Shown piece by piece: positions 2,865-62,764 of a DNA stretch of 64,000 nucleotides. This DNA is from Acidobacteriota bacterium (GTDB lineage: Bacteria > Acidobacteriota > Vicinamibacteria > Vicinamibacterales > Fen-181), in contig JADGOB010000006.1 in the NCBI GenBank assembly GCA_017883185.1, positions 2,283 through 66,282 of the forward strand. The letters run 5' to 3'. A program made the position numbers and the translations under genes. The notes below the pieces were generated by a model. It had not been told where the DNA came from. It was given only the letters and a program-made list of their open reading frames with translations, and searched no databases. Position 1 is the first letter of the stretch. The number at the start of each line of letters is the position of its first letter.

Positions 2865-2872
2865 CCAACCGT

Positions 2873-2935
2873 CCCCTGACCCCTGACCCCTAACTCCTAA
2901 CCCCCGATCCCCGATCCCTGCCCCCTGATCCCTAT
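2873..2935. repeat. heptanucleotide tandem array, 9 in-phase units (CCCCTGA family)
   Basis: Direct read: cccctga cccctga cccctaa ctcctaa cccccga tccccga tccctgc cccctga tccctat. It fills the junction between the upstream gene's stop (2932-2934) and the GT9 start (2864). Confidence 0.95.
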
Positions 2936-15923: not shown

Positions 15924-15926
15924 CCG

Positions 15927-15951: not shown

Positions 15952-15961
15952 GAGAGTAAGC

Positions 15962-16429
15962 ATGTTGCGCGGCAGTTTCACGGCGAAAATCGACGAAAAG
16001 AGCCGCCTGAAGATTCCCCGCGACTTCCTCAAGTCGATCGAGGAGAAATTCGGCCGCGAGTTCTTCGTGACCAGCCTCGATGGCATCTCTGCCCACCTCT
16101 ACCCGATGCCCGTCTGGACTGAGATCGAACGGCAACTTGGCGCGCAGGGGCTGGTCCGGGATCCCGAAGTGGATCGCTTCTTCAAACATACCAGCTTTTA
16201 TGGCCAGGTGGCCGAGATCGACAACCAGGGCCGCCTGCTGATCCACCCTCGGCTCCGCGAGAGAGCGAGCATGGCCGGCGACGTGGACGTGGTCGGCAAC
16301 TTCGACCACCTCGAGGTCTGGAACCTGGAGCGGCTCAAGGCGGATCTGGCGGCCGCGCCGTTCACCGACAACGACCGGCGCGTCGTGGCGGGCCTGCTGC
16401 GGCAGACTCAGAAAATCGAGACCCCGTAA
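15962..16429 (+). CDS. mraZ: transcriptional regulator MraZ
   Basis: Track ORF 15938..16429, trimmed to ATG 15962 (MLRGSFTAKIDEKSRLKIPRDF...). Duplicated SpoVT/AbrB-like halves, GGAGAG RBS upstream, first gene of the dcw cluster. Confidence 0.9.
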   Translation: MLRGSFTAKIDEKSRLKIPRDFLKSIEEKFGREFFVTSLDGISAHLYPMPVWTEIERQLGAQGLVRDPEVDRFFKHTSFYGQVAEIDNQGRLLIHPRLRERASMAGDVDVVGNFDHLEVWNLERLKADLAAAPFTDNDRRVVAGLLRQTQKIETP

Positions 16430-16448
16430 CGGGCGGCAAGGACGGCCA

Positions 16449-17342
16449 GTGACCATGCCCGAGCACGTTCCGGTGATGAGAGCCGAGGTTCTGCACGCTC
16501 TCGATCCGCAGCGCGGCGGGCTCTTCGTGGATTGCACGCTCGGCCTTGGAGGCCACGCTGCGGCGGTGCTGGAGGCGGGGGCGACACGGCTGATCGGGAT
16601 CGACAGGGACCTCGAGGCGCTGTCGATTGCGCGCGAGCGCCTGGGGCGATGGGCCGATCGGGTGGAGTTCGTGCACGCGGATTACAAGGACCTCGGCGAG
16701 GTGCTCGACGCGCGCGGGGTGCAGTGCGCGGACGGCATCGTCGCCGATCTTGGCGTCTCCTCGCTGCAGTTCGACGGCGAGGGGCGCGGGTTCAGTTTCC
16801 AGAGGGACGAACCGCTCGACATGCGGATGGACCGGTCGGCCGGAATGACGGCCGCTGATCTGATCGCGGAGCTCGAGGAGCACGAACTCGCCGACCTGGT
16901 CTACGCGTTCGGCGAGGAGCGCTACTCGCGGAGGATTGCGCGCGCGGTCGTGGAAGCACGCCGCGAGGGTCCGGTCGCCACGACGGGGCAGCTCGCGGCC
17001 ATCGTGCGTCGGGCGGTGCCACGGAAGGGCTACAGCCCGATTCACCCTGCGACGCGCACGTTCCAGGCGCTGCGAATCCGCGTGAACGGCGAGCTCGACG
17101 GGCTCGATCGATTCGTAGACCACGCGTGCCGGCGGCTGGCGCCGGGCGGGCGCCTGGTCGTGATCGCGTTTCACTCGCTCGAGGACCGGATCGTCAAGCA
17201 CACGCTGCGGCAGCTCGCGGCCGACGAGACGCGGTCACTCCGGCTGCTGGCCCGCAAGGCGGGCCAGCCCACCGACGAGGAAGTGGCCATCAACCCGAGG
17301 GCCCGGAGCGCAAAGCTCAGGGCCGTCGAGCGAGTGGCTTGA
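16449..17342 (+). CDS. rsmH: 16S rRNA (cytosine1402-N4)-methyltransferase RsmH
   Basis: ORF track, 297 aa. HVPVM...FVDCTLGLGGHA...SLEDRIVK motifs. Start is GTG 16449 or ATG 16455. Confidence 0.92.
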   Translation: MTMPEHVPVMRAEVLHALDPQRGGLFVDCTLGLGGHAAAVLEAGATRLIGIDRDLEALSIARERLGRWADRVEFVHADYKDLGEVLDARGVQCADGIVADLGVSSLQFDGEGRGFSFQRDEPLDMRMDRSAGMTAADLIAELEEHELADLVYAFGEERYSRRIARAVVEARREGPVATTGQLAAIVRRAVPRKGYSPIHPATRTFQALRIRVNGELDGLDRFVDHACRRLAPGGRLVVIAFHSLEDRIVKHTLRQLAADETRSLRLLARKAGQPTDEEVAINPRARSAKLRAVERVA

Positions 17343-17370
17343 GACACGTTTTACGGGAGAGGACCGCGAC

Positions 17371-17772
17371 ATGCAGGGCAGGGTCAACACCCCCACCGCC
17401 TTCGAGGTGAGCCCGGCGCTACCCCGCCAGCAGGTCAACCTCGAGGTGGACCAGGCGCGACAGCGCGAGTTTCGGCGCTGGCTGCTGGTCGGGCTCGTGA
17501 TCATTGTGGCCGCGCTGTTCGACGGGACGCAGCGATATGTCCCGTCCTCGCTCGGGTACCAGCTGGAGCAAGTGCAGCAACAACACGCCCAGGAGGACGC
17601 GATCGCCCGCGCGCTGCGGCTCGATATTGCGATGCTGCGGGCGCTGCCACGCATTGAGGGGCTAGCCACGAACCTTCTGCACATGACTGCTCCCGGGCGC
17701 GGCAATACCATCGTGATCGAGCGAGTTGTTCCGCCCGAGCAACCACCCTCGTCAGTCGTCGCGGCGCGATAG
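17371..17772 (+). CDS. ftsL: cell division protein FtsL-like (single-pass membrane, coiled coil)
   Basis: ORF track, 133 aa. One TM helix (WLLVGLVIIVAALF) followed by a heptad-like region. Canonical position between rsmH and ftsI. Confidence 0.7.
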   Translation: MQGRVNTPTAFEVSPALPRQQVNLEVDQARQREFRRWLLVGLVIIVAALFDGTQRYVPSSLGYQLEQVQQQHAQEDAIARALRLDIAMLRALPRIEGLATNLLHMTAPGRGNTIVIERVVPPEQPPSSVVAAR

Positions 17773-17780
17773 GAGCGATC

Positions 17781-19808
17781 ATGGCTGAGCAACCCGATCC
17801 ACGCAACTGGCGGCTTACCGTGGGCCCCCGCCTGGTCGTGGTCGTCGTCGTGTTCGCGGTCTGTCTGCTTGCCGTGTTCGTCCGCCTTGTCAATCTCCAG
17901 ATCTACCAGCACGACGAACTCCAGGCGAGGAGCGAGCGCCAGCGGACGAGTCTGCTGGAGGAGCCCGCGCAGCGGGGCGACATCGTGGACCGTCACGGCA
18001 GGGTGCTCGCCTCCAGCGTCGAGGTCGACACGGTGGTCGCCGTGCCGAGCAAGCTAGTGAACAAGGAGCAGGTGGTCGCGAGTTTGTGCGACGCGCTCGG
18101 CGACTGCGACGACGCCGAGCGTGTGGCCATGACGAAGCGCCTCAGCCGGAAGAAGTCGTTCGCCAACGTGCGTCACCATGTGAAACCCGAGCAGGCGCGC
18201 CGGGTGGAAGCGCTCGGGATTGACGGCGTCTACTTCGTGAAGGAGCCGCGCCGCTACTATCCCAACCAGGAGCTGGCTGCGGCCGTGCTCGGCTACGTCG
18301 GGATCGAGAACAAGGGCCTGGCCGGGCTCGAGGACACCTACGACTCGAAGCTCCGCGGACGTCCGGGCCTCATGCGGCTGCAACACGACGGCCGCAAGAC
18401 CGGTCGAAAGTCCTTCAGTCGCGTCGGCGATCCGCCCGTGCCCGGGGCCACCATCGAGCTCACGATCGACGCGAACCTGCAGTACATCGCCGAACGGGAA
18501 CTGCGGGCGGGCGTCGAGGAGAACCGGGCGATCGGCGGCAGCGTGGTCATGATGGATTCGACGACCGGCGAGATCTTCGCCCTCGCGAGCGAGCCGTCGT
18601 TCAACGCGAACGACTACGGGCACGTGCCCGCCGAGCATCGGCGCAATCGCGCTGTCCAGGACATCTACGAGCCGGGATCAACCTTCAAGCTCGTCACGGC
18701 ATCGGCCGCGCTCGAAGAGAAGGTGATGAGCCCGACCGACCTGGTCGAGACCGGCGGCGGGTCGATCGCGATTGGGTCCAGGATCATCAAAGAAGCACAG
18801 GGGCACGCGTACGGGACGCTCTCGTTCACCGACGTGATCGTCAAATCGAGCAACGTCGGTGCGATCAAGATCGGGTTCCGCCTTGGGGCGGAACGCCTCG
18901 GTCGCTACGTCGAACGCTTCGGGTTCGGCACGCGCCTGTCGCCCGACTTCCCGGGGGAGAACGCCGGCATCGTGTGGCGGCCGTCGCAGTGGACCGACGG
19001 CGCGCTGGCTTCGGTCTCGATGGGCTACCAGATCGGCGTGACGCCGCTGCAGATGGCGGCCGCCGCGAGCGTCGTGGCCAACGGCGGCGAACTGGTGCAG
19101 CCGCGGGTGGTGCGAGCGGTGATCGACGGCAACCGGCGCGCGGTCGTCCCGCGCAAGGTGATTCGTCGGGTGACCTCGGCGGAAACCGCGGCGGAGCTGA
19201 CCTCCATCATGGAAGCCGTGGTCGATCGCGGGACCGGGAAGAATGGCAAGCTTCTGGACTTCACCGTCGCGGGCAAGACCGGCACCGCGAACAAGGTCCA
19301 GGATGGGCAATACCTGAAGAAGGACTTCAACGTGTCGTTCGTCGGCTTCGTCCCGTCGCGCAAGCCGGCGCTGACGATCCTCGTCCTCATCGACACCCCA
19401 CGCGGCCCGAACAGACCCTTCGGCGGCACCGTGGCGGCGCCGATCTTCCGGCGGATCGCCGACGCCGCGCTCCGTTACATGGCCGTCGCGCCGACCATCA
19501 ACCCGATGCCTCCCGTCCTCGTGGCGCGTCACGACAGCGGCAACGGAATCAAGGTGTCCGGTCCGGTCCTGCCGTTGACGATCATCCCGGCCGTCAGCCC
19601 GTCGTCGACCGGACAGATCGTGCTGCCGGAGTTGCGGGGGCTGAGCGGGCGCGAGGCGCTCCGGGTGCTGGCCCGGCTGGGTATCACGCCGCGCGTGACG
19701 GGCGACGGCGTGGTGACTGAACAGGATCCGCTGCCTGGCGCGGCGCTCGAGGCCGGCGGGTCGTGCCGCCTGGCGCTCGGCCGCCACGCCCCGGGGCTGC
19801 GTCCATGA
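17781..19808 (+). CDS. ftsI: peptidoglycan D,D-transpeptidase FtsI (class B PBP) with a C-terminal PASTA domain
   Basis: ORF track, 675 aa. SxxK (GSTFK), SxN (KSSNVG) and KTG (GKTGTA) motifs. C-terminal LPELRGLSGREALRVLARLGITPRVTGDGVV is PASTA-like. Confidence 0.92.
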   Translation: MAEQPDPRNWRLTVGPRLVVVVVVFAVCLLAVFVRLVNLQIYQHDELQARSERQRTSLLEEPAQRGDIVDRHGRVLASSVEVDTVVAVPSKLVNKEQVVASLCDALGDCDDAERVAMTKRLSRKKSFANVRHHVKPEQARRVEALGIDGVYFVKEPRRYYPNQELAAAVLGYVGIENKGLAGLEDTYDSKLRGRPGLMRLQHDGRKTGRKSFSRVGDPPVPGATIELTIDANLQYIAERELRAGVEENRAIGGSVVMMDSTTGEIFALASEPSFNANDYGHVPAEHRRNRAVQDIYEPGSTFKLVTASAALEEKVMSPTDLVETGGGSIAIGSRIIKEAQGHAYGTLSFTDVIVKSSNVGAIKIGFRLGAERLGRYVERFGFGTRLSPDFPGENAGIVWRPSQWTDGALASVSMGYQIGVTPLQMAAAASVVANGGELVQPRVVRAVIDGNRRAVVPRKVIRRVTSAETAAELTSIMEAVVDRGTGKNGKLLDFTVAGKTGTANKVQDGQYLKKDFNVSFVGFVPSRKPALTILVLIDTPRGPNRPFGGTVAAPIFRRIADAALRYMAVAPTINPMPPVLVARHDSGNGIKVSGPVLPLTIIPAVSPSSTGQIVLPELRGLSGREALRVLARLGITPRVTGDGVVTEQDPLPGAALEAGGSCRLALGRHAPGLRP

Positions 19809-21355
19809 CACTTGCCGACCTGCTGGCGGCACTCGGCGACCTCGCGCCTGACGCGCGCTCGACGCTCGACGCGTCGCTGGCCGAGCGGGTCGTCAAGGCG
19901 GTGGCCTACGACTCGCGCAAGACGGGCCAGGGTTCCCTCTTCGTGGCGCTCAAGGGACAGAAAGCGGACGGCAGCGCGTTCGCGGTGCAGGCGCTCTCGA
20001 AAGGCGCGCTGGCGGTCGTCGCCGAGTCGGAGCGCCCGCGCGACGTGCAGGCGCCGTGGGTCGTCGTGCCCGACGCGCGCCTCGCCATGGCGCGGCTCGC
20101 GGCGGCGTTCTACCGTCATCCTTCCCGCGAACTGAAAGTCGTGGGCATCACCGGCACCAACGGCAAGACCACGACGGCGTACCTGGTCACCGCGCTGTTC
20201 GAGGCCGCGGCCATTCGGTGCGGCATGCTCGGCACTGTCGTCTACCGGATCGGCCTCGAGGACCGCGAGGCGACCCGAACGACGCCGGAGTCGGTGGACG
20301 TGCAGCACATGCTGCGCGAGATGGTGACCCGCGAGTGCGGCGCGTGCGCGATGGAGGTGTCTTCTCACGCGCTTTCGCAGCGGCGCGTGGACGGGACGCG
20401 GTTTGCCGTCGGCGTCTTCACGAACCTGACGCGCGACCACCTCGACTTCCACGGCGACATGGAGTCGTACTTCGCGGCCAAGCGACGCCTGTTCGAGATG
20501 ATGGGCCCTGACGGCGTGGCCGTGCTCAACGTGGACGATCCCCGCGGCTCGACGTTGGGCGGCCTCGCCGGACGGACGCTCACCTACGCCGTCGACCGGC
20601 CGGCTGACATCTCCCCCTCGAAGCTGACGCACTCGATCAGGGGCTTCACCTTCCAGGCCGTGACGCCGGTTGGATCGATCCAGGTGTGCTCGTCGCTGGT
20701 TGGCCGCCCGAACGTGTACAACGTGCTTGCGTCGATCGGCGCGGCGCTGGCGTGCGGTCTCCAGGCTGACGCGATCGAGCGTGGCCTGGCCGGGCTCGAA
20801 GGCGTGCCGGGCCGCTTTCAGGTGGTGTCCGAACCGGGCGACGACATCACCGTCGTCGTCGACTATGCGCACACCGACGACGCGCTGAAGAACCTGCTCG
20901 AAACGGCGCGGCCCCTGGCCACCCAGCGGCTGATTACCGTGTTCGGCGCCGGCGGGGAGCGCGACCGGACCAAGCGCCCGCTGATGGGCGCCGTGGCGGC
21001 GAGGCTCAGCGACCTCGTGATCATCACGTCGGACAACCCGAGAGGCGAGGACCCGACGGAGATCATCGAGGAGATCAAGCGGGGGGTCGCCATGCCGGCC
21101 GAGCGCACGCGAGCGTCAGAGACGCGCGAAGGCCAGCCGAAGTACACGCCGCCGAAGGCCACGGCGCACATGGCGATCGTGGATCGCAAGCTGGCGATCG
21201 AGCGGGCGATCAGCCTCGCGCGTCCCGATGATGTCGTGCTGATCGCCGGGAAGGGCCACGAGAAGTACCAGGTGATCGGCGACCGGGAGATTCCGTTCGA
21301 CGATGTCGCCGTATCGAGGCAGGCGCTGGAGCGAAGGCGCGCGGGTCGTGGGTAG
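19805..21355 (+). CDS. murE: UDP-N-acetylmuramoyl-L-alanyl-D-glutamate--2,6-diaminopimelate ligase MurE
   Basis: Track ORF 19763..21355, trimmed to ATG 19805 (ATGA overlap with the ftsI stop). GITGTNGKTTTAYL P-loop; DNPR motif (SDNPRGEDP). Confidence 0.92.
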   Translation: MTLADLLAALGDLAPDARSTLDASLAERVVKAVAYDSRKTGQGSLFVALKGQKADGSAFAVQALSKGALAVVAESERPRDVQAPWVVVPDARLAMARLAAAFYRHPSRELKVVGITGTNGKTTTAYLVTALFEAAAIRCGMLGTVVYRIGLEDREATRTTPESVDVQHMLREMVTRECGACAMEVSSHALSQRRVDGTRFAVGVFTNLTRDHLDFHGDMESYFAAKRRLFEMMGPDGVAVLNVDDPRGSTLGGLAGRTLTYAVDRPADISPSKLTHSIRGFTFQAVTPVGSIQVCSSLVGRPNVYNVLASIGAALACGLQADAIERGLAGLEGVPGRFQVVSEPGDDITVVVDYAHTDDALKNLLETARPLATQRLITVFGAGGERDRTKRPLMGAVAARLSDLVIITSDNPRGEDPTEIIEEIKRGVAMPAERTRASETREGQPKYTPPKATAHMAIVDRKLAIERAISLARPDDVVLIAGKGHEKYQVIGDREIPFDDVAVSRQALERRRAGRG

Positions 21356-21364
21356 CGAGCACCG

Positions 21365-22768
21365 ATGACGTTGACCGTTGCAGACATCGTCGAGGCCGTC
21401 GGCGGACGGCTCCTTTCCGGTGATGGGAAGGCGGTGGTCCCGGGGCTGTCGATCGACACGCGCACGCTCGAGGCGGGTGATCTCTACATCGCCATCCGCG
21501 GCGAGCGGTTCGACGGTCATGCGTTTGTGGAGGCTGCGCTCGCGGGCGGCGCGTGCGGTGCCGTCGTCAGCCAGCCGGTAGGGCACCTGCCGCCGGTGGT
21601 GGTTTCCGGGCGGGCCTTGATCGTCGTGCCCGACACCACGGGCGCCCTGCAGCGCCTGGCGCGCTGGGTGCGGCGTCAGTCGGGCGCACGCGTCGTGGTC
21701 ATCACGGGAAGTGTGGGCAAGACGACGACGAAGGACGTGACGGCGGCGTTTCTCGGGCTGCGGCATCGGGTGATGCGGTCGTCGGGCAACCTGAACAACC
21801 ACATTGGCCTGCCGCTGTCGCTGCTGGAACTGCGGCACGGGGCCGACGTCGCCGTGGTCGAGCTCGGGATGAACCACGCGGGCGAGATCAGCCGACTCGT
21901 GGCGATCGCCGACCCCGACGTGCGCGTCTGGACCAACGTCGCGGAGGTGCACATCGAGTTCTTCGCGTCGATCGACGCGATTGCCGACGCGAAGGCCGAG
22001 GTGCTCGAGGGGGCGACCGCGACAACGGTCCTCGTCGCGAACGCAGACGACCCTCGGGTGATGAGCCGCGCAGGAGGGTTCCCGGGGCGAGTGCTGACGT
22101 TCGGCACCGCGCCCGGGTCAACCGTCACGGCCTCGGAGGTCGAGGACCTGGGCATCGACGGGATGACTGCGCGGGTGAGCACCGGCGCCGGAAGCGTCCG
22201 CGTTCAGGTGCCGCTGCTCGGCCGGGGCAACCTGCAGAACGTCCTCGCGGCCGTCGCCGTCGCGCAAGAGTTCGGAGTGGGGCTCGCGGACATCGCCGGG
22301 CGAGCGACGACGCTCGGTCCGGCGTCGCATCGGGGCGACGTGATCCGGCTGGGTGGGGGCGTCACCGTTGTCGATGACGCGTACAACTCCAACCCGCGTG
22401 CGCTGCAGGGCGCGCTGGGAGTGATGGCCAGCGAGCGGAGATTCACCCGCCGCGTCGCCGTTCTGGGCGAGATGCTCGAACTGGGCGAACAGGCCGTTTT
22501 GCTGCACGAGGCGTGCGGCCGCACGGCGGCCGCGTCAGGCCTGTCACTGCTGCTGACGGTGGGCGGAGAGCCGGCGCGTGCGATGGGGCGGGCGGCCGTG
22601 CAGGCGGGAATGTCGGAAACGGCGGTCCGGCACGCCGGCTCGAGCGCCGAGGCCGCCGAGATCGCGGCGACCGCGGTCCACGCGGGCGATCTCGTGCTGG
22701 TCAAGGGTTCGCGCGGCATCAGGACCGAGCGCGTCGTCGAGCGATTGGCCACCGCGTTCCCGGTGTAG
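21365..22768 (+). CDS. murF: UDP-N-acetylmuramoyl-tripeptide--D-alanyl-D-alanine ligase MurF
   Basis: ORF track, 467 aa. ITGSVGKTTTKD P-loop; LELGMNHAGEI; DAYNSNP. Confidence 0.92.
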   Translation: MTLTVADIVEAVGGRLLSGDGKAVVPGLSIDTRTLEAGDLYIAIRGERFDGHAFVEAALAGGACGAVVSQPVGHLPPVVVSGRALIVVPDTTGALQRLARWVRRQSGARVVVITGSVGKTTTKDVTAAFLGLRHRVMRSSGNLNNHIGLPLSLLELRHGADVAVVELGMNHAGEISRLVAIADPDVRVWTNVAEVHIEFFASIDAIADAKAEVLEGATATTVLVANADDPRVMSRAGGFPGRVLTFGTAPGSTVTASEVEDLGIDGMTARVSTGAGSVRVQVPLLGRGNLQNVLAAVAVAQEFGVGLADIAGRATTLGPASHRGDVIRLGGGVTVVDDAYNSNPRALQGALGVMASERRFTRRVAVLGEMLELGEQAVLLHEACGRTAAASGLSLLLTVGGEPARAMGRAAVQAGMSETAVRHAGSSAEAAEIAATAVHAGDLVLVKGSRGIRTERVVERLATAFPV

Positions 22769-22782
22769 CGCCGGAAGGCGTC

Positions 22783-22824
22783 GGGGATCGGGGATCAGGG
22801 ATCGGGGATCAGGGATCAGGGATG
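22783..22824 (+). repeat. heptanucleotide tandem array, 6 units (GGGGATC/AGGGATC), ending in the murD ATG
   Basis: Direct read: ggggatc ggggatc agggatc ggggatc agggatc agggATG. It occupies almost the whole murF-murD spacer. Confidence 0.95.
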
Positions 22825-24204
22825 TCCGAGGTTCATGTGACCGGCAAGCGTGTCGTGGTCGTCGGGGCCGCCCGCAGCGGGATTGCCGCCGCCGAGCTGC
22901 TGGCGCGCCGTGGTGCACGCGTGATCCTCGCCGACCGGAAGCCGGAGTTGCCAGACGCCTCGAGACTGCGTGAACTCGGCGTCGAAACCGAGCTCGGTCC
23001 GCACAATCCGAAGACGTTCACGGCGGCAGACCTGATCGTGCTGAGCCCAGGGGTTCCGCTTCGGCAGCCGGTGCTGGTGCGCGCGAGGCGGGCCAGGGTC
23101 CCGATCATCGGCGAGGTGGAGCTGGCATCGCGGATGCTGCGGGGCCGGATCATCGCGATCACCGGCACGAAGGGAAAGTCGACGACGACGACGCTGGTTG
23201 GCCGGATGCTCACGGCCGCCGGGCTGAACGCCTCGGTGGCGGGCAACATCGGCGATCCGCTGGCGGCCAAGGTCGAGGCGTCCACGGACCAGACGATCCA
23301 CGTCGTCGAGGTGAGCAGCTTCCAGCTGGAATCGACCGAGACGTTCCACCCGTGGATCGCCGTGCTATTGAACTTCTCGGCCGATCACCTCGACCGGCAC
23401 GCGAACCTGCGCGAGTACGCCGCTGCCAAGGCGCGCGTCTTCGCCAACCAGGGCGAGTCGGACTGGGCCGTGATCAATGCAGACGATCCCCCGGCGATGC
23501 GGCTCGCCGCCCGGCGCGCGCACGCGCCGAAGCGGCTGTTCGCGCTGGATCGCGCGCTCACCGAGGGCACCGTGCTCGCCGACGGCTGGATCGTGTCGCG
23601 AGTGCCAGGGCAGGCCGACGTGCCCGTGCTGCCCGTGAGCGAGGTGCAGTTGATCGGGCGCCACCTCCTGTCCGACGTCGCGGCGGCCGCCACGGTCGCG
23701 ATGCTCGCGGGCGCGACGCCCGACGCGATCCGCCTCGCGGTTTCGGGCTTCGGCGGACTCGAGCACGCGCTCGAACGTGTGAAAGTGGTGGCGGGCATCC
23801 AGTTCGTCAACGACTCGAAGGCCACCAATGTCGAGTCCGCCCGGCGGGCGATCGAGAGCTTTGACGGACGGCTCGTGCCGATCATCGGCGGGCGTTTCAA
23901 GGGCGGGGATCTTCGCGACCTGCGGCCGGCGCTTGATGGGCGTTCGACGGCAGTCGTCGCGATCGGCGAAGCCCGCGCGGCGGTGCGTGAGGCGCTCGGG
24001 GACCTGGTGGCCGTGATCGAAGCGGGATCGATGGCGGAGGCGGTGCGCGCGGCGTTTGGCGCGGCGCCGCCCGGCGGGACGGTGGTGCTGGCGCCCGCGT
24101 GCGCCAGTTTCGATATGTTCCGTGACTACGCGGAACGGGGACGGATGTTCAAGCAGGAAGTCGAGAGGCTCGCGCAGGAATTCAACGGAACCCGTGAGCC
24201 GTGA
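22822..24204 (+). CDS. murD: UDP-N-acetylmuramoylalanine--D-glutamate ligase MurD
   Basis: Track ORF 22513..24204, trimmed to ATG 22822 (MSEVHVTGKRVVVVGAARSGIAAAELL...). GTKGKSTTT P-loop. The upstream extension overlaps murF and is Arg/Gly-rich. Confidence 0.92.
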   Translation: MSEVHVTGKRVVVVGAARSGIAAAELLARRGARVILADRKPELPDASRLRELGVETELGPHNPKTFTAADLIVLSPGVPLRQPVLVRARRARVPIIGEVELASRMLRGRIIAITGTKGKSTTTTLVGRMLTAAGLNASVAGNIGDPLAAKVEASTDQTIHVVEVSSFQLESTETFHPWIAVLLNFSADHLDRHANLREYAAAKARVFANQGESDWAVINADDPPAMRLAARRAHAPKRLFALDRALTEGTVLADGWIVSRVPGQADVPVLPVSEVQLIGRHLLSDVAAAATVAMLAGATPDAIRLAVSGFGGLEHALERVKVVAGIQFVNDSKATNVESARRAIESFDGRLVPIIGGRFKGGDLRDLRPALDGRSTAVVAIGEARAAVREALGDLVAVIEAGSMAEAVRAAFGAAPPGGTVVLAPACASFDMFRDYAERGRMFKQEVERLAQEFNGTREP

Positions 24205-24319
24205 GCAGTCGTCAGTCGGCACGCGCGATTGGGAGTTGACCGCTGGGAACGCAGGCTGCCCCGGTCTGCGAGGTCGGTGTCCCAATCCCGGCTGGCTGAT
24301 GACTGTTCACTGCTCACGG
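24194..24319. repeat. nested imperfect inverted repeat built from heptamer units (murD-ftsW spacer)
   Basis: Outer arms ccgtgagcagtCGTcagtc (24199-24217) and gactgTTCactgctcacgg (24301-24319): 16 of 19 positions complementary. Inner arms gattggga (24228-24235) and tcccaatc (24280-24287). The arms read as 7-mers gtgagcc gtgagca gtcgtca gtcggca and tgatgac tgttcac tgctcac. Confidence 0.85.
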
Positions 24320-24403
24320 TGTTCCGTCCTGCAGAGGTTATTTCGGGTCGACGTGCCGTAAAGTTTAGGCCCGGGCGCAGCAGGACGGCAAGGAAGGCGA
24401 ACG

Positions 24404-25504
24404 ATGGCGCGCAAGCTCAAATCCGACGCGGTGCTGTTCAGCACCACCCTGGTGCTGCTCGTCATCAGTATGGCCTGGGTCTACGGCGCGTCGGTCACGT
24501 TCGCGACGGAGATAAAGCACGACCCGAGCCACTTCGTGATCCGGCAGGGCATGTGGGTGGCGCTCGGGATGGTCGGGCTGATGGTCGCCATGAAGCTCGA
24601 CTACCGCCTGTTCCGCAATCGCACCTTGCTGCTATGGATAGCGGGAGCGACCGCCGTCGCACTCGTGGCGGTCCTGTTCAGTCGCCCGGTGAACAACTCG
24701 ACTCGATGGCTGGGATTAGGCGGCCTCGGCGTCCAGCCGGCCGAATTCGCCAAGTTGGTTGCCATCTTTTTCGTCGCCACCGTGCTCGAACGGAGGCTGG
24801 AGCAGCAGGAACCCCTGGAGCCCGGGCTGTTCCAGGCGGGCGTGCTGCTGACCGTCTTCGCGGGGTTGATCATGATTGAGCCCGACTTCGGCACCGGGCT
24901 CGTGCTGCTGGCGGCGGCGGGCACGATGATCTTCGTCGCGGGCCTCGCGTATCGATGGGTGCTGACTGCGGTTCTCGTGCTGCCGTGGCCGCTCATCGCG
25001 ATCATGCTGTACGAGCCGTACCGGCTGCGGCGGTGGCTCGCGTTCCTGAACCCTTATGATGACCCGCTTGACAGTGGCTACCAGACGCTCCAGTCGCTGA
25101 TCGCGGTCGGCACGGGCCACGTGTGGGGCAAAGGGTTCACGATGAGCGTGCAGAAGATGTTCTACCTGCCGGAGGCGCACAGTGACTACATCTTCGCGGT
25201 CATCGCCGAGGAGACGGGCCTGGTCGGCGCGACAGTGGTGCTTGCGTGCTTTGGCCTCATCGTGTGGCGCGGTCTGCGGGTGGCGCGGCGCGCGCCCGAC
25301 GCGTTCGGGTCGCTCCTTGCGGTCGGCATCACCGCCCTGATCGGCATCCAGGCCATGGTGAACCTGGGGGTCGTGGTCGGGATCCTGCCGTCGAAGGGGA
25401 TCCCGCTGCCGTTCGTGAGCGCCGGCGGCTCATCGATGATTGTCAGCCTGGTGGCGATGGGCGTGCTGTTGAATATCTCGCAACAGGCATCGGCGACGGA
25501 GTAA
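24404..25504 (+). CDS. ftsW: peptidoglycan glycosyltransferase / lipid II flippase-family protein FtsW (SEDS)
   Basis: ORF track, 366 aa polytopic membrane protein. SEDS motifs: PAEFAKL, LPEAHSDYIFAVI, LPSKGIPLPFVSAGGSS. Confidence 0.92.
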   Translation: MARKLKSDAVLFSTTLVLLVISMAWVYGASVTFATEIKHDPSHFVIRQGMWVALGMVGLMVAMKLDYRLFRNRTLLLWIAGATAVALVAVLFSRPVNNSTRWLGLGGLGVQPAEFAKLVAIFFVATVLERRLEQQEPLEPGLFQAGVLLTVFAGLIMIEPDFGTGLVLLAAAGTMIFVAGLAYRWVLTAVLVLPWPLIAIMLYEPYRLRRWLAFLNPYDDPLDSGYQTLQSLIAVGTGHVWGKGFTMSVQKMFYLPEAHSDYIFAVIAEETGLVGATVVLACFGLIVWRGLRVARRAPDAFGSLLAVGITALIGIQAMVNLGVVVGILPSKGIPLPFVSAGGSSMIVSLVAMGVLLNISQQASATE

Positions 25505-25507
25505 CGC

Positions 25508-26923
25508 GTGCTGGGACGTACCCGGAGAGTGCATTTCGTCGGTATTGGCGGCAGCGGCATGAGCGGTATCGCCGAGTTGCTCGCGAACCTCGACTACGCG
25601 GTGAGCGGGTCCGATGCCCGGCTGTCGCCGGTGACTGCGCACCTGGCCTCTCTCGGCGTCCGCGTCGAGGAGGGGCACGATGCCAGCCACGTCGGCGATG
25701 CGGACGTCGTCGTCTACTCGTCCGCGGTGCGCCCGACGAACCCGGAGATCGTCGAGGCCACGCGGCGCCGCATCCCGGTGATCCCCCGCGCCGAGATGCT
25801 GGCGGAGTTGATGCGGCTGAAGTACAGCGTCGCGGTGGCCGGGGCACACGGCAAGACCACCACCACCTCGATGATCGCTCTCGTGCTGGAACGGGGCGGC
25901 CTCGACCCGACGGCGGTGATCGGGGGGCGCCTGAGCGCGTTCGGCAGCAGCGCTCGGCTGGGCCGCGGCGACTTCATGGTGGTGGAGGCTGACGAAAGCG
26001 ACCGCTCGTTCCTGAAGCTCACGCCGTCGGTGGCCGTCGTCACCAACATCGACCAGGAGCACCTGGAGAGCTACCGCGACTTCGAGGACCTACAGCAGGC
26101 CTTCGTCGCGTTCGCCAACAAGGTGCCGTTCTACGGGACGATCGTCGCGTGCGCCGACGATGGGTACCTGCGGCAGTTGCTGCCGGCTATGACGCGGCGC
26201 GTCATCACGTACGGCCTCGACGCGCCGGACACGCACTACCGCGGCGTCGAGGTGCGCGGCGTCGGGTTCGACTGGCGCTGCACGGTCGTTCGCGACCTGC
26301 GCCAGATCAGCCGCGGCGAGGGGGCCGGGCCGGTCACGCTCGGCGAGATCGTGCTGCACGTGCCCGGTCGCCACAACCTCCAGAACGCGCTGGCCGCCGT
26401 CGCCGTCGGCCTCGAGCTCGACGTGCCGTTCGATCGCATCGCCGCCGCGCTCGACGAGTTCCGGGGCGCCGAACGGCGGTTCGAGGATCACGGCGTTGCC
26501 GGCGGCGTTCGGGTCATCGAGGACTACGGGCACCATCCCACTGAGATTGCCGCGGTGATCGGCGCCGCGAAAGCGGCCCTTGAAGGCCGCCTGCTCGTGG
26601 TGTTCCAGCCCCATCGATACTCGCGCACGCGTCGACTGCTCGATCGATTCGGGCCGGCCCTGGCTGGCGCGGACATGGTGGTGCTGACCGACATCTACGC
26701 GGCGGGCGAGGACCCCGAGCCGGGTGTCACCGTGGAGGCGCTGGCCGACGAGATCCGCCGCCACCTCCAGGCGCCGCTGCTCGTGGTGAAGGACATCAAG
26801 GACGTGCCGTTGGCGGTCTCGCGGCTGGCGACGCCTGGCGATGTGATCCTCACGCTCGGGGCGGGATCGATCGGGGCGGCGTCGGACGAGATCCTGAACG
26901 AGCTGGGGAAGACAGCGAAATGA
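25508..26923 (+). CDS. murC: UDP-N-acetylmuramate--L-alanine ligase MurC
   Basis: ORF track, 471 aa, GTG start 3 nt after the ftsW stop. VHFVGIGGSGMSGIAELL, AGAHGKTTTTSM, DYGHHPTEI. Confidence 0.92.
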   Translation: MLGRTRRVHFVGIGGSGMSGIAELLANLDYAVSGSDARLSPVTAHLASLGVRVEEGHDASHVGDADVVVYSSAVRPTNPEIVEATRRRIPVIPRAEMLAELMRLKYSVAVAGAHGKTTTTSMIALVLERGGLDPTAVIGGRLSAFGSSARLGRGDFMVVEADESDRSFLKLTPSVAVVTNIDQEHLESYRDFEDLQQAFVAFANKVPFYGTIVACADDGYLRQLLPAMTRRVITYGLDAPDTHYRGVEVRGVGFDWRCTVVRDLRQISRGEGAGPVTLGEIVLHVPGRHNLQNALAAVAVGLELDVPFDRIAAALDEFRGAERRFEDHGVAGGVRVIEDYGHHPTEIAAVIGAAKAALEGRLLVVFQPHRYSRTRRLLDRFGPALAGADMVVLTDIYAAGEDPEPGVTVEALADEIRRHLQAPLLVVKDIKDVPLAVSRLATPGDVILTLGAGSIGAASDEILNELGKTAK

Positions 26924-26950
26924 CGTCTTGGGACTGATGGATCCATCAAC

Positions 26951-27814
26951 GTGCCCGTAACCGCACCGGCCGATCGTCGGTTCCTGCGCGCGCAGGTCAA
27001 GCCAGGGCGGCGCCAGCCGCCGTGGCGGCCGTGGCTTCGGCTGTGCCGCGCGCTCGTGCTCTTCGCCCTCGTCGGGTGGGCCGGCTGGTGGTGCGCGATG
27101 TCGATCCTGCACGCCCCGGTCCTGCGGGTCGCGCACATCACCGTGATGGGCACGCGGCACCTGTCGACTGGCGAGGTGCTGGCGCTGGTCGACGGGCTTC
27201 GCGGCCAGAACATCCTGCTGGTGCGCCTGGACGACTGGCGCGAACGAGTGCTGACGTGTCCGTGGGTGGCCGACGCGACACTCCGGCGGTCGTTGCCGGG
27301 CACCGTGGAGGTTCGGATCGCCGAGCGGCATCCGCTCGCGATCGGACGCGTCGGCGAGGAACTGTTCCTCGTGGACGATCATGGCCGCGTCATCGACGAG
27401 TACGGCCCGCGCTACGCGGATTTTGACCTGCCGATTCTCGACGGGCTGGCCCCGGGATTCGCGCAGGAGGCGAGCGCCAACGAGCGCCGCGCGCAACTGG
27501 CGTCGCGACTGTTGCGGGACGTGCGCACCCGGCCCGACCTCGCCAGGCGCATTTCGCAGCTCGACGTGTCGGACCCGCGCGACGCCGTCGTGATCGTGGA
27601 CCAGGATACGGCTCGCGTCCGGCTGGGTGAAGAGCGGTTCGTCGAGCGGCTGCAGTCGTACGTGGACCTCGCGCCTACACTGCGCGAACACGTTCCCGTC
27701 ATCGACTACGTGGATCTCAGGTTCGGCGAGCGGGTATTCGTCGGATCGCAGGCAGGAGTCGCTCCGGCGGCAACGACCGGGCCCGTGCGTCGGCCGGGCA
27801 CGACGAACCAGTAG
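26951..27814 (+). CDS. ftsQ: cell division protein FtsQ (POTRA domain)
   Basis: ORF track, 287 aa. N-terminal TM helix (ALVLFALVGWAGWWCAM) followed by a POTRA-like region. Canonical position before ftsA. Confidence 0.8.
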   Translation: MPVTAPADRRFLRAQVKPGRRQPPWRPWLRLCRALVLFALVGWAGWWCAMSILHAPVLRVAHITVMGTRHLSTGEVLALVDGLRGQNILLVRLDDWRERVLTCPWVADATLRRSLPGTVEVRIAERHPLAIGRVGEELFLVDDHGRVIDEYGPRYADFDLPILDGLAPGFAQEASANERRAQLASRLLRDVRTRPDLARRISQLDVSDPRDAVVIVDQDTARVRLGEERFVERLQSYVDLAPTLREHVPVIDYVDLRFGERVFVGSQAGVAPAATTGPVRRPGTTNQ

Positions 27815-27912
27815 AGGATCAGCCGGGGCGCGACGCGGACGGACCAACTGGGCAGGCGGCAGGCGCGCCGCGCAGGGCGCCGCCAACCGCAGGGTGACAG
27901 AGCGGAGGGGGA

Positions 27913-29151
27913 GTGGCGCGAAAGGAACGGTATCTCGTCGGCCTCGACATCGGCACGTCGAAGACGACGGCGATCGTCGGTGAGCCGGGCGAGAACAACA
28001 GCCTGAACATCGTCGGCATGGGCGTCGCCGAATCGAACGGCATCCGTCGCGGCCTCGTGGTGAATCTCGCGGCGGCGGTGGATTCGATCAAGAAGGCGAT
28101 CATGGAAGCGGAGCTGACCGCCGGCATCGAGATCGACAACGTCTACCTCGCCCTTTGCGGCCCGCACGTCAAGGGGTTCAACAGCCGCGGCGTCGTGGCG
28201 GTGTCCGGCAAGAACCGGGAGATCACCCGCGAAGACGTCGGGCGGGCCATCGACGCGGCCAAGGCGGTCTCGCTCCCGACCGGGCGCCAGATCCTGCACG
28301 TCCTGCCGCAGGACTTCGTCGTGGACGACCAGGACGGCATCCGCGACCCGATCGGGATGACCGGCGCCCGGCTCGAGGTGAACGTGCACGTGGTGACCGG
28401 GAGCGTGTCGGCGACGCAGAACATCGTCGCGTGCGTGAACCGGGCGAATGTGCACGTCAAGGGCACCGTGCTCGGGCAGCTGGCCGCGAGCGACGCGGTG
28501 CTGACGGAAGACGAGAAGGAGTTGGGCGTCGCGCTGCTCGACGTGGGCGGCGGCACGACCGACCTGGCGATCTTCGAGCGGGGCAGCCTCTGGCACACCG
28601 CGGTGATCCCGATCGGCGGCGATCACTTCACGAACGACATCGCCGTCGGCCTCCGGATGCCGATCCCCGAGGCCGAGAAACTCAAGCGCCGCAGCGGATG
28701 CGCGCTGTCCGGCATGGTCGCGGACGAAGAGACGATCGAGGTGGCGAGCGTGGGTCGGCGGCGCCCGCGCGTCATGAGCCGGCGGATTCTGACCGACGTG
28801 CTCCAGCCGCGCGCGGAGGAGATCTTCCACCTCGTGTGGGACGAGATCCGGCACGCGGGTTACGAGAAGGTCCTGAACTCTGGCATCGTCCTCGCCGGCG
28901 GCGGGGCGATTCTCGACGGCCTCCCGGAGATCGCCGAGCAGATCTTCGACCTGCCCATCCGGCGCGGCAATCCTGCCGGCGTGGGTGGCGGGCTGGCGGA
29001 TCACGTGAACAGCCCTGCGTTCGCGACCGCGGTCGGCCTCGTGCAACGCGCGCACGCCCAGTGGCTGCGCGAGACGCCGCGCAATGGTAGCGGGCCGTTC
29101 TCCCGGGTAGCGGGCAGGATTGGACGATTGCTTCGCGAGTTCGTCCACTGA
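27913..29151 (+). CDS. ftsA: cell division protein FtsA (actin-like ATPase)
   Basis: ORF track, 412 aa. LVGLDIGTSKT, DVGGGTTDLAIF, VLAGGGA motifs. GGAGGGGGA RBS upstream of the GTG start. Confidence 0.92.
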   Translation: MARKERYLVGLDIGTSKTTAIVGEPGENNSLNIVGMGVAESNGIRRGLVVNLAAAVDSIKKAIMEAELTAGIEIDNVYLALCGPHVKGFNSRGVVAVSGKNREITREDVGRAIDAAKAVSLPTGRQILHVLPQDFVVDDQDGIRDPIGMTGARLEVNVHVVTGSVSATQNIVACVNRANVHVKGTVLGQLAASDAVLTEDEKELGVALLDVGGGTTDLAIFERGSLWHTAVIPIGGDHFTNDIAVGLRMPIPEAEKLKRRSGCALSGMVADEETIEVASVGRRRPRVMSRRILTDVLQPRAEEIFHLVWDEIRHAGYEKVLNSGIVLAGGGAILDGLPEIAEQIFDLPIRRGNPAGVGGGLADHVNSPAFATAVGLVQRAHAQWLRETPRNGSGPFSRVAGRIGRLLREFVH

Positions 29152-29438
29152 CCAATGGAGTCGAGCCATCATGAACGAACACCGAGAATCGCAAACGACC
29201 GGAAGCGGCACGAACCCGCCCGTCGATTCACACATGGCCACTCTCGGCGCCGGCGCGGCGGGGCGATCGGGGGCCTGGCCTGCAATCGCGATCGGGCCGG
29301 TCAGTCGAACGACTCTCAGGGCCAGGCTGGCCCTGCTGAGGCCGCTCGCGCTGAAGGTGCAGCCGGCAAGGGCCGCCCGGCCCTGATCCGGTCGGCGGAA
29401 TTACATCATCTGGACCCGAGCGAGACGTGGAGGATTGA

Positions 29439-30734
29439 ATGGCGAACCCGCAGCACCTGATCCCCGGCACCGGCACAAATTCTCTTTCGGATTCGCTGCG
29501 GATCCAGCTTGGCGATGACCCGCGTCGCCTGGGCGCGCGCATCAAGGTGATCGGCGTGGGCGGCGGCGGCGGAAACGCCGTCAACCGGATGGTCCGCGCC
29601 GGGTTCCCTGGCGTCGAGTTCATCGTGACGAACACCGATGTCCAGGCGTTGCAGCAGAGCAACGCCCCGATCAAGGTGCAGCTGGGCGAGAAGCTGACCA
29701 AGGGCCTCGGCGCCGGCGCCGACCCCGTGGTGGGCCGCGCGGCCGCGCTCGAGGACACCGAGCGATTGCTCGAAGTGCTCGACGGGGCCGACATGGTGTT
29801 CGTGACCGCCGGCATGGGCGGCGGGACAGGCACCGGCGCCGCCCCGGTGGTAGCCAGCCTCGCCAGCGAGATTGGCGCACTGACCATCGCGGTGGTCACC
29901 AAGCCGTTCACATTCGAAGGAGGCCAGCGCAACCAGCAGGCCGAACAGGGGCTCTCCGAGCTCCGCCAGTCCGTGGACAGCGTGATCACCATTCCGAACG
30001 AGCGCCTCCTCGCCGTCGATCGCGGCCTCACCCTGCTCAAGGCGTTCGAGGCGGCCGACGACGTCCTGCGGCAGGCGATTCAGGGCATCTCGGATCTCAT
30101 CCTCGTGCCCGGGTTGATCAACCTCGACTTCGCCGACGTCAAGGCGATCATGAGAGGCATGGGCGTCGCCGTGATGGGCACAGGCATCGCCGAGGGACCC
30201 GACCGTGCGATCGAGGCGGCGAAGAAGGCCATCTCGAGCCCGCTGCTCGAGGATGCCTCGGTGGACGGCGCCCGCGGCGTCATCATCAACATCACCGGAG
30301 GCAGCAGCCTTGGCATCGGCGAGGTGAACGACGCCTCGCAGATCATCTTCAAGGCCGCGCATCAGGACGCGAACATCATCTTTGGCGCGGTGGTGGACCC
30401 GAGCCTCGAGGACCGGGTGAAGATCACCGTCATCGCCACCGGGTTCGACGGCGGGCGCCCGAGTAAGACGGGGCGGCTCAACGTCGACACGCCTGTTGCC
30501 ATCGAGAACTACAAGAACTGGCACGAGGAACACCGCCAGGCTCCGCCTGCCAGCGAGGTGGGCTCGGCCACCTCGTCCATTCCTGTCCGCCGGCGTTCGG
30601 TGATCTCGGTGTCGGCGCCAGCGCGGACCGTCGTGAACGGATCGCCCGTTGAGCCGGTATCGGACGAGGGTGTCGAGCCGGACGACACGTCTCCGTTCGA
30701 CGTGCCGGCCTTCCTCCGCCGCCAGCAGGGGTGA
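29439..30734 (+). CDS. ftsZ: cell division GTPase FtsZ
   Basis: ORF track, 431 aa. Tubulin signature [13 protein letters not shown] and NTDVQAL. C-terminal DVPAFLRRQ peptide. GGAGGA RBS. Confidence 0.97.
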
Positions 30735-33643: not shown

Positions 33644-34542
33644 TGCTCCGCCTCGAACCGCCGAGATCGCCGGGACGGCCGTCAACGAACGGATTTGTCT
33701 GGACGAGGGAGTCGTGGGGCACGGCGCTGCGGTGCGCGTCCCTGACGGAGGTGGCGGATCACTTCTTCACGACCCGTCAACTGCGGTTGCGGGGAGCGTC
33801 GGAACCGGACGACTGGGCGCATGTGGCCTCGACGATCGGGGTGACACCGGGTCGCCTGCTCCGCCTGACCCAGGTCCACGGCCACCGCGTGGTCGTGGCA
33901 CGCCGCCCGGAATCGGCAGGCCGCCCCGGATCGGCCAGCCTGCCTTTGCCGGAAAACGGGAGCACCTCCAGCAGGAGCGGGCACGACTGGCCCGAGGCCG
34001 ACATCCTGGTGTCGGACGACCCGGAAGTGGCCCTGGCCATCCAGGTGGCTGACTGCGTGCCGCTGCTCATGGCTGACCGTCGCTCTGGCGCGGTGGCGGC
34101 CGTCCACGCCGGCTGGCGGGGAACGGTGGCTGGTGCCGGGCCTGCCGCGGTCGATGCGCTGTCGCGGGAATTCGGCGCACGTCCCGAGGACCTCCTCGTG
34201 GCTCAGGGACCGAGCATCGGGCCCTGCTGCTACGAAGTGGGCGGCGACCTGCGCGGTGCCTTCGAAGAGAGCGAATTCAGGACGCACATCGACCGATGGT
34301 TCTCGCGCGGCGCGGACGGTCGTTTCCTGCTCGACCTGTGGACGGCCAACCGCGACCAACTGCTCGCGTCAGGCGTGCGCCCGGACGCCATTCACCAATC
34401 GGGTCTCTGCACCGCCAGCCACCCTGACTTGTTTGCATCGTATCGGCGGGACGGGCCGGGCACGGGTCGGATCGCGGCGGTGGTCCGAAGCCGGGGGCTC
34501 TCAGGTGAAAGTGAGAATCGAGGATTGAGAATCGAGGATTGA
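33643..34542 (+). CDS. pgeF: peptidoglycan editing factor PgeF / YfiH (Cu-oxidase_4, DUF152)
   Basis: Track ORF 33253..34542, trimmed to ATG 33643 (TGATG overlap with acpS). QVHG, ADCVPLL, HAGWRG and C..S motifs. The last codons are encoded by a heptamer array. Confidence 0.85.
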   Translation: MLRLEPPRSPGRPSTNGFVWTRESWGTALRCASLTEVADHFFTTRQLRLRGASEPDDWAHVASTIGVTPGRLLRLTQVHGHRVVVARRPESAGRPGSASLPLPENGSTSSRSGHDWPEADILVSDDPEVALAIQVADCVPLLMADRRSGAVAAVHAGWRGTVAGAGPAAVDALSREFGARPEDLLVAQGPSIGPCCYEVGGDLRGAFEESEFRTHIDRWFSRGADGRFLLDLWTANRDQLLASGVRPDAIHQSGLCTASHPDLFASYRRDGPGTGRIAAVVRSRGLSGESENRGLRIED

Positions 34543-34554
34543 AGATCGACGACC
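34513..34554. repeat. heptanucleotide array, 6 units (GAGAATC/GAGGATT)
   Basis: gagaatc gaggatt gagaatc gaggatt gaagatc gacgacc. It overlaps the pgeF stop (34540-34542). Confidence 0.95.
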
Positions 34555-34599
34555 GCTGCTGTCCAAGCCGGTCACCTGGAGGCGGCCGCGCGCTCGGCC

Positions 34600-34627
34600 A
34601 TTCTCCATTCTCAATTCTTCATTTCCG
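34600..34627. repeat. heptanucleotide array, 4 units (ATTCTCC family); inverted partner of 34513-34554
   Basis: attctcc attctca attcttc atttccg. It overlaps the rnhA stop (34611-34613). Its reverse complement (GGAGAAT/TGAGAAT) matches the first array at about 15 of 18 positions. Confidence 0.9.
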
Positions 34628-45668: not shown

Positions 45669-45717
45669 ATTCTGACTTCTGAATTCTGTCTTCTGACTTC
45701 CGACTTCTCCCTCCTGC
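45669..45717. repeat. heptanucleotide array, 7 units (ATTCTGA/CTTCTGA family)
   Basis: attctga cttctga attctgt cttctga cttccga cttctcc ctcctgc, followed directly by TATAAT (45718-45723), 11 nt before the lepA ATG. Confidence 0.95.
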
Positions 45718-58661: not shown

Positions 58662-58726
58662 GGCCATGCTGCGCCGTGCCACCCAGGACCGGCGGATCTC
58701 GCCCGTCCTACCGCGCGCTCACGGCC

Positions 58727-58754
58727 GTCAGCCGTCAGCCGCAAGCCGTCAGGC
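58727..58754. repeat. heptanucleotide array, 4 units (GTCAGCC family)
   Basis: gtcagcc gtcagcc gcaagcc gtcaggc, abutting the S9 peptidase stop (58757-58759). CGCAAGCCG (58740-58748) is complementary to CGGCTTGCG in the 58634 array. Confidence 0.9.
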
Positions 58755-62697: not shown

Positions 62698-62764
62698 CAA
62701 GGCGGCAGGTGGAAAGGCGGGAAGGCGGGAAGGCGGCAGGCGGAGGGCGGACGGCGGAAAGGCT
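62698..62764. repeat. G-rich 7-8-nt tandem array (RRGGCGG units)
   Basis: caaggcgg caggtgg aaaggcgg gaaggcgg gaaggcgg caggcgg agggcgg acggcgg aaaggc, in the divergent spacer between the GH27 and blaI genes. Confidence 0.85.

Follow-up and report, generated by a model that had tools for sequence, protein, structure and literature searches.

A GGGNATC-type heptamer array fills the murF–murD spacer of a Vicinamibacterales dcw cluster that lacks mraY and murG

We analysed a 64 kb stretch of DNA (hereafter the window; G+C content 67.7%) of an Acidobacteriota bacterium of the order Vicinamibacterales (assembly GCA_017883185.1, contig JADGOB010000006.1, positions 2,283 to 66,282 of the forward strand), in which six heptamers of the form RGGGATC lie between the genes murF and murD of the division and cell wall (dcw) cluster. 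The array is probably a G-rich microsatellite of the GGGNATC type, generated by slippage and largely tolerated, which fills the murF–murD spacer and is now the leader of murD. The comparison set consisted of 80 related loci (950 kb), and the closest relatives are metagenome-assembled genomes of Acidobacteriota of the same order; single loci and contigs are named below by L numbers.

Sequence and position of the array

The array and its two flanking genes are arranged as follows.

21365..22768, plus strand: murF, UDP-MurNAc-tripeptide--D-Ala-D-Ala ligase (NCBIfam TIGR01143, 1.7e-112); the same gene is called in public assemblies.
22769..22782, plus strand: non-repetitive head of the spacer, CGCCGGAAGGCGTC, with a predicted small hairpin CGCC-GGAA-GGCG.
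22783..22824, plus strand: heptamer array, seen in the sequence, by Tandem Repeats Finder (TRF) and by pattern count; its G-rich strand is the mRNA sense strand.
22822..24204, plus strand: murD, UDP-MurNAc-L-Ala--D-Glu ligase (NCBIfam TIGR01087, 1.2e-122, residues 10-448).

Behind the murF stop codon TAG (22766-22768) and the 14 unique nucleotides (nt) of the spacer head, six in-phase units follow one another: GGGGATC, GGGGATC, AGGGATC, GGGGATC, AGGGATC and AGGGATG, the last of which contains the murD ATG (22822-22824). The initial annotation of this DNA had described six heptamers that take up 42 of the 56 nt from the murF stop to the murD start; this is exact when the ATG is counted, and the phase with the start codon at the end of the sixth unit is also as described. 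The spacer proper measures 53 nt (22769-22821), and the units abut and enter the murD start. TRF reported period 7 with 5.7 copies and 90% matches, and 96% matches when the array was read with period 14. The two-unit pattern RGGGATCRGGGATC, with one mismatch allowed at most, matched six times in the window against 0.15 expected, a number reached in none of 100 shuffles; five of these matches belong to the murD array and one to an array on the minus strand at 2871-2933. A motif search confirmed the formal G-quadruplex (G4) motif that had been proposed, with six tracts of three or four G and loops of 3-4 nt.

The ATG inside the last unit is the start used in public gene calls, the exact protein being encoded on 14 public contigs with that start, and it is conserved as ATG TCC GA among the relatives. 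An N-terminal extension of MurD through the array was rejected: the frame is open, but zero start codons exist between the murF stop and the ATG, and the public calls use the ATG.

Membership in the GGGNATC class

Repeats of the GGGNATC type were described by Rehm et al. (2015, PMC4692102), with the unit GGGAATC in Xanthomonas and GGGGA(C/T)T in Nostoc. [quoted passage not shown]

Judged by its units and position, the murD array is a member of this already described class. Three units are exactly GGGGATC and the other three (AGGGATC/AGGGATG) differ by one base; the class has at least four consecutive G tracts, and here six were found (pattern match 22783-22821). On the sense strand 14 nt separate the murF stop from the first unit, the sister array at 2871-2933 begins inside a stop codon, and both RGGGATC arrays vary in length and sequence between close relatives. 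The repeats thus share with those of Rehm et al. the GGG-N-ATC unit, the head-to-tail arrangement of four or more copies, the formal G4 motif and the neighbourhood of housekeeping rather than surface genes; the sister array precedes an envelope-related gene (family-9 glycosyltransferase). They differ in the host (Acidobacteriota, Vicinamibacterales), in that half of the units are of the A variant AGGGATC, and in that here the G-rich coding strand runs into a start codon, whereas the repeats close upstream of an ORF in Rehm et al. are mostly on the non-coding one. Two loci in 64 kb carry the unit, an abundance that is known from one window only. In a literature search on Vicinamibacter and tandem repeats we found no paper describing such repeats there.

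Heptamer simple sequence repeats (SSRs) are over-represented in large, high-GC genomes of non-pathogenic bacteria, as relayed in PMC4692102 from its ref. 33, and the same paper relays that the preference is attributed to polymerase slippage or to the footprint of the DNA polymerase. As far as these relayed descriptions go, the high-GC heptamer SSRs and the heptamers among the short tandemly repeated repetitive (STRR) sequences of heterocystous cyanobacteria resemble our arrays in the dominance of period 7, the intergenic position and the proposed slippage in 7-nt steps; they are genome-level statistics, whereas here a single locus is followed with its population alleles.

Two other heptamer systems were compared. 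In Haemophilus influenzae the (ATCTTTC)n repeat lies in the 5' untranslated region (5'-UTR) of hmw1A/hmw2A, a phase-variable adhesin whose expression is inversely proportional to the repeat number. Copy number grades expression there through a long hairpin cleaved by RNase III, in which the repeat, needing at least 11 copies, is paired with a G-rich partner (PMC12721329). The murD array is similar in standing directly upstream of a gene and in varying naturally in copy number, and unlike it in that the gene is the essential murD, the units number only 4-11, a partner arm is lacking and the fold is not unusually stable. The TAACTGA direct repeats of marine Beggiatoaceae, cyanobacteria and Bacteroidetes lie a few nt upstream of start codons (MacGregor 2015, PMC4679880). 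They too are heptamers near start codons, including those of essential genes, with one unit family at several loci of a genome, but they are AT-rich, without G4 potential and strictly conserved, whereas the units of the murD array drift between strains. A phase-variable SSR switch is expected in an ORF, a promoter or a structured 5'-UTR of a surface, virulence or restriction-modification gene; the murD array is intergenic with no promoter-like site, and the gene downstream is the essential murD.

Copy-number alleles

The initial annotation had asked for a comparison of the murF–murD junction across relatives, and copy number does vary there. Among assemblies 99.2-99.98% identical to the window, six units are present in the window, L081, L083-L090 and L100, and four in L082, in which the 14-nt deletion is the only indel in 7.4 kb against the window. 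Sister strain groups have 4, 5 or about 11 units. Where MurD is 97-98% identical, L091-95 and L104 have the array AGGGATC, AGGGATC, AGGGGTC, GGGGGTC, AGGG, and L103 has this form with one extra AGGGATC (7-nt difference); L096 has about 11 degenerate units in a spacer of 84 nt. L099 (MurD 87% identical) has AGGGACG/AGGGGCG units, and this contig ends inside the array. Two more contigs end in the same way (together L097-L099), which may be an effect of population heterogeneity on the assembly graphs. A metagenome scan with the 3' junction pattern gave three contigs, two of them already known, and so added one more six-unit copy.

The sister array shares this behaviour.

2871..2933, minus strand: array of the same unit family, AGGGATC, AGGGGGC, AGGGATC, GGGGATC, GGGGGTT, AGGAGTT, AGGGGTC, AGGGGTC, AGGGGAC.

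Its nine RGGGRTC-type units are G-rich on the sense strand of their own genes; the array begins within the stop codon TAG (2932-2934) of the upstream gene, and 6 nt remain between its end and the GTG start (2864) of the family-9 glycosyltransferase gene. Four length alleles, with spacers of 60, 60', 67 and 81 nt, were found in six sequences; relative to the window they are changed by -7 nt, again -7 nt with a different unit lost, and +14 nt. These six sequences are at least 99.2% identical with indels included and at least 99.6% outside them.

The kinship of the two arrays, one of which reads in the minus sense, had been noticed before and is borne out by the single RGGGATCRGGGATC match at 2871-2933. 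The further statement that they are the sole pair of loci in the window to share a unit does not hold, as one unit family is also shared, in inverted orientation, by the arrays at 34512-34553 and 34591-34623.

Loss of mraY and murG, and the age of the array

The dcw cluster of the window (15900-30800) has the order rsmH, a questionable ftsL, ftsI, murE, murF, murD, ftsW, murC, ftsQ, ftsA and ftsZ, with mraY and murG absent from their usual slots. We also noted that neither murB nor ddl separates murC from ftsQ. The order murF–mraY–murD was found in 72 of the 80 related loci (those with both genes on the contig), and a gap of about 1.1 kb, the size of murG, lies between ftsW and murC in all but the closest few. 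Both genes are lacking, as in the window, in L001-L004 and probably L008 (MurD 76-84% identical), and in L005 and L007 mraY is kept and murG is gone. On this distribution the loss is a stepwise, clade-level event with murG leaving earlier. By tblastn (queries MraY of L005, MurG of L115 and an Escherichia coli MraY sequence) neither mraY nor murG had a match in the whole 64 kb window or in the sequences flanking the clusters of mraY-less relatives, and look-ups of MraY homologues, clusters and contexts (P0178, P0134, P0139) for a displaced mraY gave only canonical murF–mraY–murD loci.

The array therefore does occupy the usual mraY slot, as first described, mraY being absent from the whole window. 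That it stands in for mraY is contradicted by the mraY-less L001-L004 and L105/L106, whose murF–murD spacers are non-repetitive: 90 nt in L001, 60 nt in L002, 5 nt in L003, and in L004 a spacer ending in GGGGATGGGGATG. In L105/L106, whose MurD is 85% identical, there is no array, and a small hairpin precedes GATCGTGGATCACC-ATG. Since these loci lack both mraY and an array, the loss of mraY preceded the array.

Both ends of the spacer are older than the repeat. The spacer head CGCGGGC after the murF stop is common to the sister strain groups and the array-free L105, and the start context GGGATG-TCC-GA is already present in the array-free L002, L004 and L008. The reading that the array supplies the murD start codon has to be reversed, because the start context came first; the array most likely grew from it, as an internal expansion between a CGCGGGC-like head and the GGGATG context. 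A comparable case was seen in L035 and L055, where the unit GGGATTC is identical with the first bases of murD (GTG GGA TTC), which points to local seeding.

An order-wide excess of period-7 arrays

The window contains nine tandem arrays of any period, six of which have period 7 (at least 3.5 copies), and all six are intergenic. In the 80 related loci period 7 is also the commonest class of tandem repeat, with 37 arrays against 10-12 for periods 5, 6 and 8. Some of these 37 (e.g. CTGCTGA) are one strand of a conserved RNA helix instead of true repeats, and the excess persists without them. All period-7 arrays of the related loci are in spacers, and they typically fill whole gaps between genes.

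The mraY–murD junction of the relatives shows the same tendency. The spacer is essentially nil in 53 of the 72 relatives having both genes, typically with the mraY stop overlapping the murD start (ATGA). Spacers of at least 30 nt were found in 15 of the 72, and about ten of these are built of short tandem arrays, six with period 7, two with period 8 and one with period 9. These junctions show that in Vicinamibacterales arrays tend to create spacers where relatives have overlapping genes. The murD array is thus nothing peculiar to the mraY slot; it belongs to an order-wide excess of intergenic arrays with period 7 that fill spacers.

Two mraY–murD spacers are very long, 184 nt in L010 (5800-6000) and 257 nt in L060 (5740-6000). 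They are built of tandem arrays with an 8-nt unit GACCCTGN or a 9/18-nt unit GGTGCGAGA/GGTGCGACG, and the L010 array is the reverse complement of an AGGGTC-type unit and therefore C-rich on the sense strand.

Proposed origin of the array and the evidence against slippage alone

We propose that mraY, and earlier murG, would have left the cluster with a short unique murF–murD spacer remaining, in which the array would have arisen by replication slippage between the ancestral head and the GGGATG context; gains and losses of 7 or 14 nt and point changes would have come later. Consensus scans predicted neither a promoter nor a terminator inside the spacer, so most likely the array forms the leader of murD on a polycistronic mRNA. 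Its last full unit, AGGGAUC (-11 to -5), may act by default as a weak purine-rich ribosome-binding element, and with four or more G tracts a G4 of RNA or DNA would be possible. Since the units hardly differ from one another, the 20 nt ahead of the ATG stay the same when units are gained or lost. The start region has a flat predicted accessibility (0.35-0.47) for 0 to 11 units, and the effect on murD translation would be near-neutral or weakly modulating.

Several observations weigh against a slippage-generated and merely tolerated array. Only the expected products of slippage are seen and not slippage itself. All strain groups whose MurD is at least 87% identical keep a G-rich array at the slot despite the turnover of units, and all murD-array alleles retain at least four G tracts; this persistence fits selection as well as descent. 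In the co-directional dcw spacers of the relatives, period-7 arrays are G-rich on the sense strand in 16 cases, C-rich in 6 and neutral in 10, where several of the six C-rich arrays are the second arm of an inverted pair, and both RGGGATC arrays of the window are G-rich on the sense strand though one is on the plus and the other on the minus strand. It is not obvious why a neutral process driven by replication alone should follow transcription direction. The orientation of replication could not be used here, because the GC skew had zero strand switches in the window. Moreover, unit families recur at distant loci of one genome (2871 and 22783 in the window; 5910 and 7396 in L017), which local slippage alone does not explain. 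The persistence at the slot, the sense-strand tendency and the recurring unit families keep functional readings alive at low probability.

One such reading is that a G4, in the RNA or in the non-template DNA beside the start codon, throttles translation or transcription of murD, with the copy number as a rheostat; we consider this unlikely. The six tracts and the retention of at least four in all natural alleles of the clade agree with it, as do the sense-strand G bias of the arrays and the G4 formed by GGGNATC-type repeats in vitro (PMC4692102). Only six such motifs exist on both strands of the 64 kb, and three of them are within the two RGGGATC arrays. In the G4 model of ViennaRNA a three-layer G4 is placed in the minimum-energy fold of the window allele and the gain for the allele of about 11 units is -26 kcal/mol; in a synthetic series the G4 enters this fold only from four full units plus AGGG, a threshold straddled by the natural 39- and 53-nt alleles. 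However, the same model predicts a gain of only -1.5 kcal/mol for the window allele over a hairpin alternative on the GAUC palindromes, and no G4 in the minimum-energy fold of the four-unit allele. Relatives have arrays at the same slot that are not G-rich or are C-rich (GACCCTG in L010; L053), the other arrays of the window are not G-rich, and Rehm et al. could not identify a regulatory role (PMC4692102). An essential housekeeping gene such as murD would also be an odd target for stochastic tuning.

Just as improbable, in our judgement, is that the units are repeated Shine-Dalgarno (SD)-like or standby sites, in which RGGGAUC would pair with a 16S rRNA tail 5'-GAUCACC... and replace the coupling lost with mraY. 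Translational coupling was probably lost in the mraY-less clade, because mraY overlaps or abuts murD in 53 of the 72 relatives with mraY. Each unit is predicted to pair at about -8.5 kcal/mol with an assumed canonical 16S tail GAUCACCUCCUUUCU, within the range of the neighbouring genes (-6 to -12.5), and 4 nt separate the last full unit from the AUG; in the neighbouring dcw genes, SD sites of the GGAG type are found at -8 to -12. This pairing is computed with an assumed 16S 3' end and not that of the host, since the sequences analysed contain no 16S 3' end, and pairing with the core anti-SD CACCUCCU is weak (-5.7). Sister alleles exchange GAUC for GGUC, GACC or GACG and so lose the complementarity given by GAUC, and the mraY-less relatives manage without any array.

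A binding platform for an RNA- or DNA-binding protein, either CsrA-like (GGA in CAGGGAUG-like motifs) or a binder of heptamer repeats, is very improbable. AGGGA and GGGGA motifs are present in the array, and CAGGGAUGU resembles the CsrA SELEX (systematic evolution of ligands by exponential enrichment) core CARGGAUGU. Two loci share one unit family, and at each of them it abuts a start codon on the sense strand, and binders have been proposed for the TAACTGA heptamers just upstream of start codons (MacGregor 2015, PMC4679880). On the other side, units diverge freely between strain groups, other arrays of the window have unrelated units, and csrA was not found in the 1.2 Mb examined, which is uninformative about the genome.

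Least probable of all is a scar or by-product of mraY removal (a recombination footprint or mobile-element remnant): the position of the array is the very junction from which mraY is gone, and L005, which keeps mraY, has in its mraY–murD spacer a G-rich quasi-repeat partly aligning with the sister-group array (GGGTCGGGGTCAGGG), but the junction is non-repetitive in five further lineages without mraY, the same array types are seen at unrelated junctions as well as in relatives with mraY, and transposase, inverted terminal repeats and target duplications are not present.

Some other candidates were tried and discarded. A stable Watson-Crick structure in the spacer is not supported (z = -0.07), and no Rfam match was obtained there at gathering thresholds or at E<=1. 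A Dam-type reading of the five GATC sites, 7 bp apart, was dropped because the window as a whole has about 3 times as many GATC sites as base composition predicts (583 observed, 191 expected; codon usage is one candidate cause) and because sister alleles lose GATC. MraZ boxes have a period of about 10, and the period of 7 and the position of the array do not agree with them.

Other period-7 arrays and repeats of the window

Besides the two RGGGATC arrays, the following heptamer arrays were found.

34512..34623, no strand assigned: inverted array pair flanking a 42-nt centre, GAGAATC/GAGGATT x5 on one side and CCATTCT x4 on the other; the 33-nt arms are 73% complementary.
45670..45708, plus strand: TTCTGAC x5.6 array in the spacer upstream of lepA (TRF).
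58724..58752, no strand assigned: GCCGTCA x4.1 array between convergent genes (TRF).
62699..62759, no strand assigned: AAGGCGG x8.3 array between divergent genes (TRF).

The TTCTGAC array upstream of lepA has a constant length in eight strains, and a neighbouring 109-nt piece is present or absent; from this constancy we consider the heptamer arrays to be mutable but not hypervariable. The piece was found directly after the upstream stop codon in L107, L110, L112 and L114 (LepA identical), and the window (45640-45734) is without it. It comprises an AGAATTC x4 array, inverted with respect to the TTCTGAC array, and a terminator-like hairpin GGGAGCCAGGAGGC...GCCTCCTGGCTC followed by TTTCGTTT. This suggests composite elements, inverted heptamer arrays around a hairpin, which are gained or lost as a block. 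Inverted array pairs similar to that at 34512-34623 were observed in the murD–ftsW and ftsW–murC spacers of L014, L017 and L030.

A tandem array with a 20-nt unit (ACCGACCCGTCCTCGTCAGC, 9.3 copies, TRF score 288) is located at 36875-37062, just past the stop of a minus-strand gene (37065-38774); it is taken as non-coding because its period is not a multiple of 3. At 57339-57412 (plus strand) domains V-VI of a group II intron were matched by Rfam (55.6 bits, E 3.4e-08), immediately behind an ORF of 469 codons (55883-57289) that presumably encodes the reverse transcriptase/maturase of the intron.

A conserved RNA structure between murD and ftsW

A conserved RNA element of about 135 nt was found at 24194-24331 (plus strand), in the spacer that runs from the stop of murD (24204) to the start of ftsW (24404). 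With the 5' strand of its outer helix it extends into the final codons and the stop of murD. Of 81 sequences 80 contain the element, among them every one of the 79 related loci extending this far, although murD DNA is only 75-82% identical between these species. RNAalifold on 78 distinct sequences gave a rod-like hairpin of 49 pairs, 33 of them with compensatory double changes; 95.6% of the cells are paired against 26-43% with slid partners, and none of 500 shuffles reached any of the measures. The covariance model scored 138 bits on the plus strand and 41 bits on the minus strand and found a single copy in the window, and the element had no match in Rfam 15 even at E<=10. Its invariant unpaired stretches include GCUGGGAAC and the apical loop UGCCCCG. 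The element probably represents a structured RNA of the dcw operon that has so far escaped annotation; it might serve as a site of RNA processing or stabilisation, or as a leader of ftsW that binds a protein or a ligand.

Significance

The array alone is ordinary, and the by-products of its analysis, a clade with a dcw cluster lacking mraY and murG and the murD–ftsW RNA structure, may outweigh it. The survey extends the excess of heptamer repeats to Acidobacteriota. For the GGGNATC class this locus is a natural test case, in which the repeat forms the whole leader of an essential and easily assayed gene and alleles of 4, 5, 6 and about 11 units exist in near-identical backgrounds. These natural alleles allow a direct test of whether bacterial GGGNATC repeats and RNA G4s affect translation.

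We might speculate, as a long shot, that Vicinamibacterales use sense-strand G-rich heptamer arrays as a lineage-wide, evolvable device for tuning translation, through RNA G4, anti-SD pairing or a repeat-binding factor. If this were true, the copy number set by slippage would determine the output of the downstream gene, here the essential murD after the loss of its coupling to mraY, and the arrays would be a functional, lineage-wide system instead of neutral microsatellites.

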